The notes under the pieces were generated by a model. It saw only the letters and a program-made list of their open reading frames with translations. It did not search any database and had not been told where the DNA came from. Of a stretch of 45,536 nucleotides of DNA, positions 33 through 45,536 are shown in pieces. Positions within the stretch are counted from its first letter, which is position 1. Each line of letters opens with the position of its first letter. The DNA lies in sequence record NC_073058.1, one strand, 5' to 3'. Source of the DNA: Escherichia phage vB_EcoS_WFI. Position numbers and translations under genes: made by a program.

Positions 33-103
33 GATTAATATTGGTTGCATTCAGCCTGGCACCCTGCTAGATTGGTTGCACACCAACGAGAGGACCAAAC
101 AAA

Positions 104-592: not shown

Positions 593-862
593 ATGACCCG
601 TAGACGCGCAAAACAGCTTTCGTGGCATATCCCCCTGCATTGCATACGAATATGGGCTAAGAATGCGAATGAGGGCGATTCAGTGTTCTGGTGCTATCGC
701 GACGACGTTAAGCCGTTGACGCAGACTCGCTACTTGCACCAGTTCGCAGCACAACACGATTTCAGGGTGCGGACTTCCTTGCAACCAATGGGGATCCGTA
801 TTACATTACGCCGGAAGCCCGCCGTTGAGCGGGTAGGCAAACACTGGAGACTGAGCAAATGA
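593..862 (+). CDS. hypothetical protein (89 aa), member of a tandem paralog set
   Basis: RBS AAGAGG before ATG 593; C-terminus ERVGKHWRLSK resembles C-terminus of the next gene; ATGA overlap with next gene. Confidence 0.5.
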   Translation: MTRRRAKQLSWHIPLHCIRIWAKNANEGDSVFWCYRDDVKPLTQTRYLHQFAAQHDFRVRTSLQPMGIRITLRRKPAVERVGKHWRLSK

Positions 863-3731: not shown

Positions 3732-3737
3732 AACCAC

Positions 3738-3764
3738 AAGCCCGGTTAATTCCGGGCTTTTTAT
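3738..3764 (+). terminator. rho-independent terminator
   Basis: AAGCCCGGTTAATTCCGGGCTT hairpin followed by TTTT. Confidence 0.6.
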
Positions 3765-3828
3765 TGCTTGACTTGCAACCAACATAAGGGCCATACTGCA
3801 ACCAATCAACGAGAAGGAGTAACACACT

Positions 3829-3909
3829 ATGACACGCAATGATATTTATGTACTGGCAATCTGGTCCGCCGCCGCATTCATCGGTATGGTTATTTGCGAA
3901 TTGCTATAG
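3829..3909 (+). CDS. possible 26-aa hydrophobic peptide
   Basis: Strong RBS GAAGGAG 9 nt upstream of ATG; MTRNDIYVLAIWSAAAFIGMVICELL; not in the ORF track because of size. Confidence 0.3.
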   Translation: MTRNDIYVLAIWSAAAFIGMVICELL

Positions 3910-10442: not shown

Positions 10443-11207
10443 TTAGCGCGGAATACCGCAAATCTCGTTTAACGTCTTCACGTCCAGCGCTACTGCCGTT
10501 GACTTCGGCTTGTCCGGGTATGGAATGAACTGTTCAACTTCAGGCCACGCCGCGATCAGCTTCTTGTCAGTATTGTGCATATCCAGCACGCCGGTAACAG
10601 TTAGTTTGAACGCGTCATACTTCGCACGCAATTCACGGCGGGCCTTGTCGTTGCGGTCCAGGCGCTTGCAGAAATCATGATCTGCCGGGTAGTCTACGCG
10701 ACCGCGCGGGAGATATATCGGCAGCGCGGCCCCGTTCTCGTCCACTTCACACACTGACGCGAGCATAACTTCCTCGTACCCCGGTACTATATCGCTGAGA
10801 TCCGGCGCGAGCGTATTCATATATTTCTCTTCCCAGTATCCGCGGTGCTGGCGGTAGCGGTATCCGTCGCCGCTCATATGCAGGGTACGGATGTTACCGC
10901 CTGCGTTGATTTCGAAAGTGGAGCAGTAAACGCGTCCAATGCCTTTCGTCCGGTCCTTGTTATAGCTGTACGACGCTTTATCGGTGTAAACGCTGACGCC
11001 GTACATCTGCGACTGGTTATCGCTGATTTCTGCGATATATGCGCGTAGCTCGGCGAACGTGTGAATGCCTTTTGGCATACAGTGCAACGTAATGTCATAC
11101 GCCAGGTCGCGAGAGTCCATCATGATTTTTTTGGCTTCAGTCGCGATTTCGTGGTCGCGCAGGATGTTAGCCAGAATCTGGTTTTTAATGTCTTTTGTCA
11201 GTCTCAT
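10443..11207 (-). CDS. hypothetical protein (254 aa), opposite-strand gene inside the head module
   Basis: ATG at 11207 with RBS GAGGA; two ATTGGTTGCAC motifs and TATATT just upstream; no recognisable motifs. Confidence 0.6.
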   Translation of the reverse strand: MRLTKDIKNQILANILRDHEIATEAKKIMMDSRDLAYDITLHCMPKGIHTFAELRAYIAEISDNQSQMYGVSVYTDKASYSYNKDRTKGIGRVYCSTFEINAGGNIRTLHMSGDGYRYRQHRGYWEEKYMNTLAPDLSDIVPGYEEVMLASVCEVDENGAALPIYLPRGRVDYPADHDFCKRLDRNDKARRELRAKYDAFKLTVTGVLDMHNTDKKLIAAWPEVEQFIPYPDKPKSTAVALDVKTLNEICGIPR

Positions 11208-11356
11208 TTGTGTGTCCTCATTGTTGGTGTGCAACCAATATAGTGCAACCAATACCTGGATTGCAAGCGAATTTTGCGATTATTTTTATCGCTGATAATA
11301 TTAGAGGCGTGAAGTCGAGCGGGTGGCCCGCTCTGCCACAATCCCAGGGGGATAGC

Positions 11357-16077: not shown

Positions 16078-16106
16078 TTTGGTCGCTTAAATAGCGAGTG
16101 TTAATA

Positions 16107-27285: not shown

Positions 27286-27365
27286 GTTATCATCTCCTAT
27301 ATTTGGTTGAGTTTTAGTATTACACCGCTCGATCAAGAATGCAACCAATTTATGAGGATTCAGCT

Positions 27366-30052: not shown

Positions 30053-30575
30053 TTATTTAAGTGCGCCAGTCACCAGTGTTTTTTCCATATTGCGGAAGTC
30101 TTCCGGCGTCATGAGTATTTTGGACCCGTCCTCGCCAGTGAGCACGACCATAGGCTGGACGTCCTGGGCTACGACACCGAAATTGGCGGCGTTAACCATC
30201 TTGCCCGCAGATGACGAAGGATGCCAGGTACCGGCAATGTCAAGGGGCCAACCCTTGAGGCTGTCGAATTGCGATGCCGTTGTATCGATCTGAATCTCAT
30301 CATGCACGGTCATGTGCGACTCACCCAGTAGTGCGGCATACGCAACCAGGTCAACAATATTGTCTTCCTGGTGCTTACGGTGCTGGCGCACCAGCTTCAG
30401 GCAGATCAGGAAGGTCCAGGCTTCTTGCTCTGTAAGGTCGCGACCGGTAAGCGCGTTTAAACACGGCAGCGATTTGCTTCGCGCTGCGTTCTTCTTTCGC
30501 GTTGTCATAGCCGTTCTCTTTCCCGCGCTGTTCCATAGTGGTGGCGGCGTTCTTGCAGTATTCAAATGCTTTCAT
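30053..30575 (-). CDS. hypothetical protein, reading frame apparently interrupted (+1 shift near 30455-30465)
   Basis: Two overlapping ORFs (30375..30575 and 30053..30565); protein-like sequence switches frame at GTG TTT AAA C. Confidence 0.4.
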
Positions 30576-30636
30576 GATGTTTTCCTTTTAGTGGGGGCCG
30601 GATTGCCCCCGACGCGTTAACTATAGTGCAACCAAC

Positions 30637-31107
30637 CTATTGGTTGCAAGTAAATTTTGCTACGTTTATAGAATAAATTTTCGGGACCAGATCGCCGCAC
30701 GCGCGACGTATGGCTTCGATATTCTTCGGGCAGTCTTCAATGATGACCAGTTCGGACACGTCCGCATAGCACACCATTTTGAACACCGCGCACGCCTTAA
30801 ATTCCGGCGGTGGGGTGTCATCCAGCATGTGGCGCATGAACAACCGGCCTGTCGGGAATACTTTCAACTGTTCAGCGGTAGTCTCCCAGCATTCGCGCTG
30901 CCGGTTAGTCAGATACGCTATCTCGAAGCCTTGCTCTTTGTACATGCGCAGCAACGGCAGCATGTCCATGTTCAGGTCTTCGCGGACGTGCGCTTTGTGC
31001 CACTTCGCCCAAAAGGTTGATTTGGTTTTTATGCCGGGCACCAGGTCAGCACGCGCATCACTTGAACCATTAATAACGCCATCCAGATCACAAATCAGTA
31101 GTTTCAT
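30637..31107 (-). CDS. HAD-superfamily phosphatase (polynucleotide 3'-phosphatase or nucleotidase-like)
   Basis: N-terminal motif LICDLDGVI (DxDGT-type). Confidence 0.55.
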   Translation of the reverse strand: MKLLICDLDGVINGSSDARADLVPGIKTKSTFWAKWHKAHVREDLNMDMLPLLRMYKEQGFEIAYLTNRQRECWETTAEQLKVFPTGRLFMRHMLDDTPPPEFKACAVFKMVCYADVSELVIIEDCPKNIEAIRRACGDLVPKIYSINVAKFTCNQ

Positions 31108-31328
31108 TTTAAGCTCTCAATAAGGGTGTGACGGGCGCTTCGCGCCGTAAAGGAGTTGCATACAAAATGGCAACGCTTGGTTATGACAAGCCAACCGGTA
31201 AGGTCAAGGCCCATGATGGATTCGGGTCTGGATACGCGCATCACACGGTCGCGGCGCGGGTCGATGAAGAAGTCCCATTGCATTTGGTCTACTACCGCAG
31301 GGTCGCGGTCAACGATTAAGATATTCAT
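31104..31328 (-). CDS. hypothetical protein (74 aa)
   Basis: ORF track; ATGA overlap with downstream gene. Confidence 0.4.
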   Translation of the reverse strand: MNILIVDRDPAVVDQMQWDFFIDPRRDRVMRVSRPESIMGLDLTGWLVITKRCHFVCNSFTARSARHTLIESLK

Positions 31329-32488: not shown

Positions 32489-32568
32489 CGTAATGTCTCC
32501 AGGTATTAAAAAGGGCGTCCAACCGGACACCCTTAAGATAATGCAACCAATCTAATTACGCAACCAAT

Positions 32569-35444: not shown

Positions 35445-35484
35445 TTCTAAAATCCTCGATAGGGCTAACCGGCACACTATACCG

Positions 35485-35763
35485 CTACGCGACCAATTCA
35501 GCAACCAATAAATCGCAGTCGGCTATGTTGTCAATAACGCGAACGTCAGCACCGCGGCGGGCCATTCGCTCATGTTCTCGCACCTGGTGCGGCTTCGGTT
35601 TTCCTCCGGGGCGCTTCACTTCGACGAATACTATGATGCCGTTGATGATAATAATCAGGTCGGGCGCACCTGCGCGCCCCTCCCATGCCAGCTTGCGGCA
35701 GAATCCGCCAACCTCTTTCACCCGTCGCATCAGGTGACTTTGAATATTGCCTTCTGGTGTCAT
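35485..35763 (-). CDS. VRR-NUC domain nuclease
   Basis: Motifs PDLIII..G.IVFVEVKRPGGK. Confidence 0.6.
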   Translation of the reverse strand: MTPEGNIQSHLMRRVKEVGGFCRKLAWEGRAGAPDLIIIINGIIVFVEVKRPGGKPKPHQVREHERMARRGADVRVIDNIADCDLLVAELVA

Positions 35764-39261: not shown

Positions 39262-39350
39262 TTCTCAATTCCTCATTTCGCATGTATCGGGGTTATTGTG
39301 AGCCACCCCGTTCGGCTTGGTTGCTAATTTACTTGGTTGCGCCTAAGCGG

Positions 39351-41630: not shown

Positions 41631-42149
41631 TTAATCTTCTAATTCGAAATAAGTTTCGACGATTGCTTTTAATTCCTGGTGGAACTCTTCCACGTCGTCA
41701 TCTTCCAGCTTGGCAACGGATTTAATTTCGAATTCTTCCAGCAGGTCGTCAAATTCGTCGTTTGCGTCGTCGTCATCACCGCCAGCAATAATAGCGGCAT
41801 ACTGCTTGATTTCGTCGCGCATCTCTTTCAGCGGATCGGCATCTTTCTTGCCTTTACCTTTCGCCGGTGCTTTCTTAGATTTCGCCGGGGCTTCTTCTTC
41901 GTCGTCCGCGTCGTCTTCTTCTACGGCTTCTTTCTTAGCCTTGCCCTTTGCTGGCGCTTTTTTGGTCTTAGCCGGTGCTTCGTCTTCAGCGTCGTCATCT
42001 TCGACTACTTCTTCTTTTGCCTTGCCCTTAGCCGGGGCTTTCTTCGCTTCCTGTTTACCAACGGCAGCGCCAGCAGTTTCATAATGCTTAGCGATGGTTT
42101 CCAGTGCTACTACGCCGCGTGTGATCAGGTTTACGATTTGCTCAAACAT
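41631..42149 (-). CDS. Lys/Ala-rich and acidic repeat protein (histone-H1-like repeats, acidic C-terminus)
   Basis: RBS GGAGA before ATG 42149; three tandem units KKAPAKGKAK...EEDDA(E/D)DE; first gene downstream of the strong leftward promoter. Confidence 0.6.
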   Translation of the reverse strand: MFEQIVNLITRGVVALETIAKHYETAGAAVGKQEAKKAPAKGKAKEEVVEDDDAEDEAPAKTKKAPAKGKAKKEAVEEDDADDEEEAPAKSKKAPAKGKGKKDADPLKEMRDEIKQYAAIIAGGDDDDANDEFDDLLEEFEIKSVAKLEDDDVEEFHQELKAIVETYFELED

Positions 42150-42345
42150 TGTATATCTCCGATTGGTTAAGTTTAGGTGTCGGCAGTCAACTTCGTCGGT
42201 GGCCTTAACATAGTGCCAGGTTACGCGTTCTCCCTTTCGGGTAGTGGACCTGGTTATATAATCACGGTTGGGAATCCTGACACTTCGATCCGGCCCCTGC
42301 GTTGCCCCTCTCCAGTTTGCGTCCTGCATCCTGTCGACGGAGTGA

Positions 42346-42375
42346 ATAATAGATTGGTTGCAGGTGGGGTGTCAA
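42346..42375 (-). promoter_or_regulatory. sigma70-like leftward promoter TTGACA-N18-TATTAT
   Basis: Minus strand reads GTTGACACCCCACCTGCAACCAATCTATTAT; about 190-nt leader to ATG 42149. Confidence 0.45.
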
Positions 42376-42492
42376 CAACTAATTTCAAAAAAAAAAGCGC
42401 CGAGGCAAAATGCGACGGCGCTAACCAATAAGAGACAATGAGACGTGATTATTATTACACGCGTGCGCGCCCGTTTCAATATACAAAAGGAG

Positions 42493-42521
42493 TTGACACC
42501 CTGCAATTTTAGGTGTAGTTT
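42493..42521 (+). promoter_or_regulatory. possible rightward promoter TTGACA-N17-TAGTTT
   Basis: GTTGACACCCTGCAATTTTAGGTGTAGTTT; the -35 flank GTTGACACCC...CTGCAA matches the leftward promoter; weak -10. Confidence 0.35.
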
Positions 42522-42552
42522 CGTTGGTCATTAACCAATAGGAGACAGAACA

Positions 42553-42882
42553 ATGCATATCAACGACGCTATCGAAATGTTAACTAAGACCGTAAGCGGT
42601 GAGACAAGCCGGTCCTGGGCTTATACCGATGCCGTTGGTGCGGCGTTATTTGAAATCGAACGCCTGCGCAGTGTCGAAAAAGAATTGCGCGCCAAGCTGG
42701 AATTACTCAACGGTACGGCAGCAAGCAAGCTGCAAAAACACAATGAAGAAATGGAAGAATACAAAAAGCAGGTTATCCGTTTACGCGACGAGGGCAAGTC
42801 CTGGGCGATGATTGCCGAGTTGACCGGAATTAATCAGAGCACCGTGCGCTCCTGGGTACGCAATAATAAAACTTCTAAGTAA
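42553..42882 (+). CDS. HTH-type transcriptional regulator (putative)
   Basis: RBS AGGAGA; C-terminal WAMIAELTGINQSTVRSWV resembles an HTH. Confidence 0.5.
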   Translation: MHINDAIEMLTKTVSGETSRSWAYTDAVGAALFEIERLRSVEKELRAKLELLNGTAASKLQKHNEEMEEYKKQVIRLRDEGKSWAMIAELTGINQSTVRSWVRNNKTSK

Positions 42883-45157: not shown

Positions 45158-45263
45158 ATTTTGCGCGCATTGGTTGCCATTTTGAGTGTTTTTAGCTGGT
45201 CGCATTGGTTGCCGTGTAGTGTGAATATAGTGAATAGTTATGCATTTTTATTGCATAAAGTAA

Positions 45264-45421
45264 GCGGGACAAAAAGCGGGACAGACAGGGGGCGGGACAA
45301 GGCGGGACAGCACCCCCGTCCCGCCCCGGATTACGCGGCTTGCGGGGGAGCGGGACAGGCGGGACAACTCCCAGTCTTTCAGACTAGACGGGGGTCAGTT
45401 GGCCCCCCTCGTCTGAGACTG
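45264..45421. repeat. iteron array plus ~50-nt imperfect palindrome, second copy of the 16829-17139 element
   Basis: GCGGGACA units; palindrome CAGTCTTTCAGACTAGACGGGGGTCAGTTGGCCCCCCTCGTCTGAGACTG at 45372-45420; flanking TGCATAA repeats. Confidence 0.7.
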
Positions 45422-45536
45422 CATAAAATCCTGGATTGCATAATGTACGGCAGTATGATGCGAATTGCGGTCGTTGATGAACTAGGCAACCAATGCGAGT
45501 TGTATTATGGTGAGTGAAAAATGCAGTTTGCAGTTA

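Follow-up and report, generated by a model that had tools for sequence, protein, structure and literature searches.

Escherichia phage vB_EcoS_WFI (NC_073058.1) carries a 9-nt motif, ATTGGTTGC, that is concentrated at the predicted promoters of its 45.5-kb sequence (G+C 54.6%; the whole stretch analysed here, hereafter the window). The motif is a compact, asymmetric and self-contained box with the consensus A-TTGGT-Y-GC-a, and it is under much stronger purifying selection than the DNA around it. We consider it very probable that the box is a protein-binding regulatory site at promoters, and somewhat probable that its mode of action is repression of early and middle promoters. The full reading that we prefer, in which the box is the operator of one trans-acting protein that represses, with a phage helix-turn-helix (HTH) protein as the more weakly inferred binder, stands at about an even chance of being correct.

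The window, which appears to be a whole genome, belongs to the Dhillonviruses, virulent coliphages that resemble HK578. It shares 98% nucleotide identity with Escherichia phages vB_EcoS-CHD2B1 and 101114B2, and 88-96% with more than 100 other Dhillonvirus records, including HK578, EK99P-1, SO-1, Oekolampad and Haito (BASEL). Neither the annotation transferred to the window nor family scans of it revealed an integrase or immunity module, and the relatives, more than 150 in number, are all lytic-phage isolates or contigs of like organisation. Dhillonviruses are among the E. coli phages isolated most often, and are standard tools for work on defence systems (the BASEL and SECphi collections) and for phage-therapy engineering. 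The box is described neither in the searchable literature nor in the GenBank annotations of HK578 and PTXU06, which give promoters and terminators only. A 9-bp box on about ten promoters provides a complete, directly testable regulon map. Such a map tells engineers which intergenic bases must stay untouched, and the box suggests a handle by which the phage programme could be switched by adding or removing one protein. It is also a tractable system to set beside the intergenic repeats of T1-like phages.

Copies of the box and the predicted promoters they occupy

Fifteen exact copies of ATTGGTTGC are present in the window against 0.63 expected, a count reached in none of 100 shuffles. An earlier note, made from the sequence alone, had listed 14 of them, all correctly placed, and had rightly put the chance expectation below one copy; the 15th, at 781-789 on the minus strand, was absent from its list. 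In an unbiased k-mer scan of the window, ATTGGTTGC was the top 9-mer (15 versus 0.5 expected) and ATTGGTTGCA the top 10-mer (10 versus 0.12). A search allowing one mismatch added GTTGGTTGC at 3775-3783 and 30628-30636 (both minus strand), CTTGGTTGC at 39316 and 39332 (plus strand), and ATTGGTCGC at 35489-35497 (minus strand), a functional-looking variant. The note had the two CTTGGTTGC positions right and was one nucleotide off for the other two variants that it gave (3776 and 30629).

We used as gene map the annotation carried over from Bas83, mended with the HK578 and Oekolampad minus-strand gene 41631-42329. On this curated map, 17 of the 22 sites with the core TTGGTYGC fall in the 5.1% of the window that is non-coding (binomial p = 2e-18); the intergenic concentration asserted in the note therefore withstood an enrichment check, and the motif is not equally frequent in coding DNA. 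Three of the five coding sites merely clip the last codons of an upstream gene, leaving two truly internal sites (781 and 21884), about the number due to chance. Copies are often paired, as had also been noted, with start-to-start spacings of 12, 14, 16, 17, 23, 31 and 35 bp and one inverted pair (30628/30639).

A frequency matrix was built from 29 aligned sites, 20 from the window and nine from one independent relative. The motif holds ~17 bits over nine positions; positions 1-9 carry all the information apart from a slight leaning towards A at position 10, and in the 14 bases to the left and to the right no offset shows conservation. When other genomes are compared, orthologous sites differ solely at position 7 (T/C) and position 1 (A/G/C). 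Because the information is confined to the box and has no partner at a fixed offset, the box is not half of a bipartite promoter consensus.

All promoters in this study are sequence predictions. A consensus promoter scan run blind to the motif placed five promoters over motif copies, and these were among its strongest independent predictions:

3768-3797, plus strand: TTGACT-18-CATACT, following a terminator at 3738-3759
11266-11237, minus strand: TTGCAA-18-TATATT
30649-30620, minus strand: TTGCAA-18-TATAGT
39354-39326, minus strand: TTGACC-17-TAAATT, upstream of the SSB and DNA polymerase genes
42375-42346, minus strand: TTGACA-18-TATTAT, the promoter of the leftward early operon and the best sigma-70 match in the window

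The second and third of these, which the note had cited as examples, were thus recovered independently. In a weight-matrix scan with Harley-Reynolds frequencies, nine of the top 30 genome-wide predictions overlapped boxes, among them the best in the window (TTGACA-18-TATTAT), which carries a box in its spacer. The individual sites, together with the gene of the candidate regulator and its promoter, are as follows (exact copies are those of ATTGGTTGC; the iteron cluster is described below):

40..48, plus strand: exact copy; its TTGC is the -35 of the rightward early-operon promoter TTGCAT-17-TAGATT
71..79, plus strand: exact copy, on the -10/+1 of the rightward early-operon promoter, 25 nt before the ATG at 104
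72-86: palindrome TTGGT-N5-ACCAA, of which the 71..79 copy forms a part
781..789, minus strand: exact copy within gene 593..862, kept in relatives; overlaps the -35 of a predicted internal plus-strand promoter, TTGCAA-17-TACATT, and is inverted relative to transcription
3775..3783, minus strand: variant GTTGGTTGC, inverted, in the spacer of promoter 3768-3797
3798..3806, minus strand: exact copy, inverted, at about +1 of promoter 3768-3797; upstream of a small, probably membrane, open reading frame (ORF) and a metallophosphoesterase gene
11231..11239, minus strand: exact copy, on the -10/+1 of the Nmad5 gene promoter; part of palindrome 11224-11238
11245..11253, minus strand: exact copy, in the spacer of promoter 11266-11237
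27341..27349, minus strand: single exact copy in the divergent gap between the receptor-binding protein (RBP)/lipoprotein locus (minus strand) and the lateral tail fibre gene (plus strand)
30628..30636, minus strand: variant GTTGGTTGC, in the spacer of promoter 30649-30620; half of the inverted pair
30639..30647, plus strand: exact copy that completes the inverted pair; read as its reverse complement, it supplies the TTGCAA -35
32543..32551, minus strand: exact copy, downstream member of the pair between the HNH gene and hyp80; a hairpin follows
32560..32568, minus strand: exact copy, upstream member of the HNH/hyp80 pair; promoter TTGCGT-17-TATCTT
35489..35497, minus strand: variant ATTGGTCGC, in the spacer of TTGCTG-17-TATAGT
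35501..35509, minus strand: exact copy that supplies the -35 of TTGCTG-17-TATAGT (35504-35476); upstream of the Lar-like and helicase genes
39316..39324, plus strand: variant CTTGGTTGC, inverted, at about +1 of the strong promoter 39354-39326
39332..39340, plus strand: variant CTTGGTTGC, inverted, in the spacer of promoter 39354-39326
42353..42361, plus strand: exact copy, inverted, in the spacer of promoter 42375-42346
42493..42521, plus strand: promoter TTGACA-17-TAGTTT of the HTH/primase-helicase operon, without a full motif copy
42524..42538: palindrome TTGGTCATTAACCAA, two 7/9 half-matches directly 3' of the -10 of the HTH gene promoter
42553..42882, plus strand: candidate regulator, 109 amino acids
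45169..45177, plus strand: exact copy in the extended form CGCATTGGTTGCC, just past the primase-helicase stop codon
45204..45212, plus strand: exact copy, extended form, 13 nt before TATAGT and upstream of the iteron cluster
45486..45494, minus strand: exact copy, extended form, inverted; it and 45200-45213 flank the iteron cluster on its two sides

Counted from the approximate start site, the boxes lie at -40..-32, at -23..-15, at -9..-1 and at about -5..+4. They are inverted with respect to transcription at 3775/3798, 39316/39332, 42353 and 781, and the total of inverted copies, judged by the best local promoter or the downstream gene, is eight. Distances from the box to the -10 element (19, 18, 13, 2, -3 and others) are not fixed, and the motif does not follow sigma-70 geometry, in which a -35-like element stands 16-18 bp from a -10 in one orientation. 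At the strongest box-bearing promoters the hexamers are independent of the box, which occupies the spacer and +1.

We listed every intergenic gap of at least 20 bp. Nine promoter-bearing gaps carry boxes:

3732-3821
11208-11356
27286-27365
30566-30636
32489-32568
35445-35510, a region in which the 35489/35501 pair lies on the last codons of the VRR-NUC gene, just outside gap 35445-35484
39262-39350
42330-42552
45158-103

Behind these gaps are genes of replication, recombination and nucleotide metabolism, small early genes and the Nmad5 gene, and box-bearing gaps also precede the origin-like region and the divergent pair of RBP and lateral tail fibre genes (the RBP assignment is taken from PMC8594841). 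Gaps of this size inside the block from TerS to the spanin genes contain no box, those inside the block from scaffold to tail J contain none except a weak TTTGGTCGC at 16078, and none of the terminator-only gaps contains one.

Several neighbouring genes deserve mention. HK578 lacks gene 10443-11207 (minus strand), which matches Nmad5 ('nucleotide modification associated domain 5', E = 6e-56). The gene is predicted to have its own box-regulated promoter, and hints at DNA or nucleotide modification in part of the genus. Directly 3' of promoter 3768-3797 is an unannotated ORF of 27 codons (3822-3905, plus strand; MTRNDIYVLAIWSAAAFIGMVICELL) with a strong Shine-Dalgarno sequence, whose product is probably a small membrane protein. 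The ATG at 30575, which has a good Shine-Dalgarno sequence, lies in a different reading frame from the homologous DUF6378 ORF (30053-30565), the alignment of which to the Bas83 protein covers residues 18-173 alone; a frameshift or an alternative N-terminus may lie at 30565-30575.

Conservation and turnover in relatives

We compared the box regions with those of relatives at increasing distance. HK578, CHD5UKE2, Oekolampad, Bas83 and PTXU06 each have 13-15 exact copies at orthologous places. When eleven motif-bearing regions were aligned across up to 18 distinct genomes, 95% of motif columns were invariant compared with 63% of flanking columns; mean conservation was 0.99 in the motif and 0.88 in the flanks, with a Mann-Whitney p of 2e-17 that is indicative only, because neither columns nor genomes are independent.

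More distant relatives keep the sequence while its arrangement changes. L006 has nine copies in 6.1 kb, and L021, whose genes are 67-80% identical to those of the window at the nucleotide level, has 14 copies in 17 kb, with most of the box-bearing intergenic DNA unalignable to the window. In L263, a syntenic relative with a primase-helicase 67% identical, the box is again the top 9-mer (11 copies in 20 kb versus 0.21 expected). Across these three the spacing, copy number and orientation of the box have changed and its sequence is exact: L006 has the pair behind the helicase gene in inverted form, the members of the early-operon pair stand 13 bp apart in distant relatives rather than the 31 of the window, and some pairs are represented by single copies. 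Promoters with a box in the spacer recur in these distant relatives, for example TTGACA-17-TATCTT and TTGACG-17-AATACT. Judged from sequence comparison, turnover of sites with retention of the exact sequence looks like the behaviour of a transcription-factor site under selection.

The note had left two interpretations side by side, a shared operator or a promoter consensus. The compact box, its variable register and orientation, the footprint and the turnover all bear out the first, and we see what is expected of an operator, a short, discrete, over-represented site in promoter regions that is held by purifying selection and turns over with its sequence kept. The second finds no support, given the missing fixed-distance element and the inverted, spacer and +1 copies.

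A scan of a viral collection for paired boxes returned Dhillonviruses and unrelated phages of 50-80 kb. We rejected the latter as coincidence, since there the 9-mer lies within a 27-bp coding tandem repeat. These tandem repeats, CCGGTATTGGTTGCCGCTGAnnnAT, were seen in two phage contigs of that size (L157, 11280-11604; L171, 10110-10496), and they look like fibre-type repeats of nine residues, unrelated to the Dhillonvirus box.

The candidate binder and competing explanations

Our preferred reading is that a single trans-acting DNA-binding protein would control nearly all sigma-70-type promoters outside the two long structural operons. Repression is inferred because boxes sit on core elements in any register and orientation, including those of near-consensus promoters. 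A protein bound there would block host RNA polymerase, and as it builds up, early and middle transcription would be throttled or shut off, much as with Cro but at about ten promoters.

Among the more than 30 small proteins put through family scans, one apart from the small terminase was recognisably DNA-binding, the product of 42553-42882, which matches HTH_23, HTH_28 and Sigma70_r4_2. Its family is confined to this phage group (153 phage records; 24 and later 37 protein clusters). Every motif-bearing lineage examined has it, and Salmonella phage SE1, with a primase-helicase 44% identical, the same synteny and an iteron cluster (GGGGAGA), lacks both an HTH homologue and the dispersed box. Two other proteins, the hyp210 C-terminal module and hyp108, have the right pattern of presence and absence; we set them aside, as neither looks DNA-binding. 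The HTH protein, already named in the note for binding assays, is thus the best candidate for the binder of the box, a tentative assignment to which we give slightly less than an even chance.

Within the genus, the C-terminal ~65 residues of the protein hardly vary, and the core TGINxST..W occurs in all variants. The N-terminus is hypervariable (~45 residues; codons 1-45, 42553-42690), with at least five unrelated versions, among them a 40-residue extension in HK578-type phages; such hypervariability suggests diversifying selection, perhaps connected with the sensing of host defences or with a variable partner. An AlphaFold model (predicted local distance difference test score, pLDDT, 87) shows a helix of 58 residues (22-79) followed by a two-helix HTH tip (HTH 84-108). 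Fold matches to Sin, Hin, the Tn3 resolvases, IstA, DeoR, LuxR/GerE and sigma region 4 are individually weak and mutually consistent. Domains of these kinds read a short asymmetric half-site as single units, which on this model fits a box of 9-10 bp. The HTH of the 109-residue protein might then read one box, and the long helix might pair two HTHs flexibly; such a flexible coiled-coil dimer would fit paired sites of irregular spacing and orientation.

One Dhillonvirus protein, Ksap1, is known to be sensed by the KpAvs2 defence system (PMC11564622). This trigger of Avs2 is a different gene and not the HTH protein; a 74-residue ORF at 31104-31328 (minus strand), between the methyltransferase and phosphatase genes, occupies the position described for it (PMC11564622).

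The promoter of the HTH gene has features of its own. The palindrome TTGGTCATTAACCAA is essentially invariant in 16 distinct main-clade sequences (one has a single-base change), and L006 and L021 have a perfect box in its position. A box-like element here is not discriminating, because all early promoters carry boxes. The palindrome also forms the stem of a hairpin in the mRNA leader (42518-42556; -9.3 kcal/mol, z = -2.7), the outer stem of which pairs with the Shine-Dalgarno region; wobble changes are all that twelve variants of the hairpin show. The hairpin could exert translational control, and the palindrome may be conserved as its stem; it is possibly a weak operator, a leader-hairpin stem, or both. 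In the region ~42383-42520, facing the HTH gene promoter, is a predicted leftward one on the minus strand (TTGCAG-17-TATATT), whose transcript a strong terminator (GCGCCG...CGGCGC + T10) would stop after ~95 nt. Bas83, PTXU06 and HK578 all conserve this region, which has no Rfam match, as is true of the window as a whole; the transcript is a possible small RNA.

Directly downstream of the primase-helicase gene, at 45263-45372, lie at least seven iterons, GCGGGAC(A), with inverted copies to ~45327. They are probably the replication origin, and the ORF annotated across them in Bas83 is probably spurious. The cluster is made by a separate family, GCGGGACA, and the box is dispersed over ten loci, so the box is not itself an iteron. 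Inverted extended boxes of 13-14 bp, CGCATTGGTTGCC, bracket the cluster (45166-45213 and 45485-45498). HK578, L006 and L021 have the same iteron sequence.

Several observations weigh against the preferred reading, in whole or in part. The HTH domain of L263 is ~45% identical and differs within the recognition helix (STVRSWVRN to STIKNWIYR; R99K, S100N, R103Y), and its iterons downstream of the primase-helicase have changed from GCGGGACA to GGGGTGCCA, yet its box is identical. The joint switch of helix and iterons would also fit the HTH protein as an origin-binding initiator; counter to that, the HTH domain of HK578 is about as divergent, yet iterons and box are both kept. No segment of the primase-helicase tracks the iteron switch, and this protein gave no match to a solved structure or to a family beyond AAA_25. 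With the HTH core nearly invariant in the genus, and the helix changed in L263 while the motif is not, helix and motif offer no covariation. The HTH promoter is box-free in HK578 and CHD5UKE2. Since RBP and tail fibre genes are served by the box at 27341, the regulon is not purely early. Promoter calls are partly circular where the box itself supplies the TTGC of the -35 or the ATT that ends the -10, and several promoters with the box as -35 are only moderate sigma-70 matches that could depend on an activator. Exact conservation of the box across divergent phages would be natural for a conserved host protein as well. Finally, the searchable literature holds no data on transcription starts, expression timing or binding for any Dhillonvirus.

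The last but one of these points leads to the possibility that a conserved enterobacterial protein binds the box while the phage HTH does another job, such as recognition of the iteron origin. The box is letter-perfect where the HTH domain is only ~45% identical and the iterons have changed, and the HTH gene lies directly upstream of the AAA_25 primase-helicase, beside the iteron cluster, in the classic position of an initiator (compare RSF1010 RepC/RepA and lambda O/P). SE1, however, infects a closely related host and shares the replication genes and iterons without having the dispersed box; its iterons exist without a homologue of this HTH, and the equally divergent HTH of HK578 accompanies unchanged iterons. 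We know of no E. coli regulator with this site, and the ATTGGT half-sites of PdhR/UxuR type are differently spaced. A scan of bacterial genomes for paired boxes gave, among the matches listed, scattered single hits in unrelated taxa, at about the estimated chance level, and carries no weight either way. A host binder seems to us quite unlikely. Activation by the protein bound at the box, which would recruit host RNA polymerase or re-target it to delayed-early and middle promoters in the manner of MotA, is an unlikely explanation too. At six or seven sites the box occupies -40..-32 and its TTGC replaces the -35, 16-17 bp upstream of TAnnnT; these promoters match sigma-70 only moderately (scores 8-12), the promoter of the HTH gene is near-consensus and box-free, as would suit the first gene of a cascade, and the HTH is weakly similar to sigma-70 region 4. 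Many copies, on the other hand, lie in the spacer, on -10/+1 or inverted, and a protein attached to them should get in the way of polymerase; the distance from box to -10 varies; and the strongest box-bearing promoters (TTGACA-18-TATTAT and TTGACC-17-TAAATT) should need no activation.

Three further explanations were weighed. The box could load a Q-like processive antitermination or elongation factor that reads through intrinsic terminators between genes, and the placement of boxes within or beside core promoters, often as direct repeats, next to an abundance of intrinsic terminators, some of which adjoin box pairs (3738-3759; the hairpin after 32543), would suit such a role. We nevertheless hold it to be very unlikely: orientation relative to transcription is not fixed, family and Rfam scans found no Q-like, N-like or put/nut-like element, and the long structural operons, which hold most of the terminators, have no boxes. 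A plain phage-specific extended -35 or promoter consensus, read directly by host RNA polymerase, is highly improbable. Although the box contains the -35-like TTGCA, often has TTGCAA in its reverse complement, and in several copies stands 16-17 bp upstream of a -10-like hexamer, ~17 bits over nine positions far exceed a -35 element. The 29-site matrix, with no -10 at a fixed distance, largely refutes the idea, and copies in spacers, at +1, in inverted orientation or as second copies within one promoter run counter to it. An RNA-level element, a 5' leader hairpin or processing signal, is scarcely credible. TTGGT-N5-ACCAA does occur three times against 0.03 expected, near predicted transcript 5' ends, and the HTH leader folds well, but shuffled sequence folds as well as the hairpins at 71 and 11231 (z ~0), most copies lack an inverted partner, and many are found 5' of the predicted start or on the strand that is not transcribed. 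We rejected a hairpin role for the motif in general on the two folds at 71 and 11231. Roles in DNA modification or restriction avoidance, as a Chi-like sequence or in packaging were likewise rejected, because none predicts concentration at core promoters.

The repressor reading can be extended to a 'promoter occupier', in which one small HTH/coiled-coil phage protein would read ATTGG-TTGC anywhere in a promoter, silence the early and middle programme in one step and couple this to origin firing through the boxes that bracket the iterons, with the hypervariable N-terminus tuning the switch or evading defence sensors. The extension as a whole is improbable; if true, it would furnish the T1-like phages, whose intergenic repeats have long lacked an explanation, with a model that can be tested.

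Known systems, the origin-like region and other repeats

The T1-like phages, relatives of Dhillonviruses according to the BASEL paper (PMC8594841), provide the closest published analogue. TLS, T1, Rtp and Rogue1 have 21-nt intergenic direct repeats with the consensus aaATAGCACnnnTTGnTAAAA, in ~18-21 copies that are nearly all intergenic and upstream of start codons (PMC11447400). Each occurs as a single copy that points in the direction of transcription, without exception, and precedes the start by ~76 nt; their function was listed by the authors as an open question, with stoperators, enhancer sites or UP elements proposed (PMC11447400). The analogy would be functional only. Both systems belong to virulent, small coliphage siphoviruses that have dispersed intergenic copies and no phage RNA polymerase or sigma factor, but the sequences are unrelated, the repeat spans 21 nt rather than 9-10, and the box is inverted at several promoters, lies within the core promoter and is usually paired.

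Other systems share single features with the box. The stoperators read by gp71 of mycobacteriophages L5/Bxb1, reportedly described by Brown et al. in 1997, are asymmetric 13-bp sites, some 20-30 of them, scattered mainly between genes; a single HTH protein binds them as a monomer and silences many units. The asymmetric site and the many dispersed intergenic copies recur here. L5, however, is a temperate phage, and its stoperators serve an immunity repressor, have one orientation and act on elongating polymerase within transcribed regions, whereas the box is found in both orientations on promoters, in a window with no lysogeny module. The C1 protein of P1, a monomeric repressor, has more than a dozen asymmetric 17-bp operators scattered at promoters of unrelated operons, some of them paired. 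These resemble the box in being dispersed, asymmetric and at promoters, with some pairing, but they belong to the immunity system of a temperate phage/plasmid, are 17 bp long and are bound by what appears to be an unrelated protein.

The MotA box of T4, a virulent coliphage dependent on host polymerase, is likewise phage-specific and 9 bp long. At many middle promoters it is found in the -35 region, in fixed orientation and with a host-type -10, and it needs MotA and AsiA; unlike the box, which varies in register and orientation, it is centred near -30, 11-13 bp upstream of the -10. Scanned against Pfam and PHROG, the 30+ small proteins, a set smaller than the full complement of ORFs in the window, gave no match to MotA or AsiA. 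With lambda Cro the candidate would share its proposed logic, that of a small early HTH protein damping strong early promoters and possibly its own. Cro, however, is a symmetric dimer on palindromic operators at two loci, whereas the box is asymmetric and found at about ten promoters, and the candidate's fold is a long helix with a resolvase/sigma-4-like HTH. The fixed orientation, immunity repressor and palindromic operators that define the stoperator, P1 C1 and Cro families are lacking here, and we therefore class the box as a putative dispersed phage operator or regulon box, of a known general kind of which this example would be new.

Two further repeated or conserved elements were observed. 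The element GAATAGTTATGCA (~45227-45240) precedes the iterons in the window, L006 and L263, and its counterpart in SE1 is GAATAGTTATTC; it is kept across genera although the iterons differ. The octamer ACGGCAGC has 29 copies in the window versus 2.8 expected (a count reached in 0 of 100 shuffles), for example at 1086, 5197, 18867, 30954 and 44487. Its copies are mostly intragenic, in all three codon frames, with a strand bias of 23:6 irrespective of gene orientation. The same bias is repeated in five other Dhillonvirus genomes, and SE1 is without it (7:8). By its distribution the octamer is a candidate polar signal, Chi-like or related to the direction of packaging or replication.

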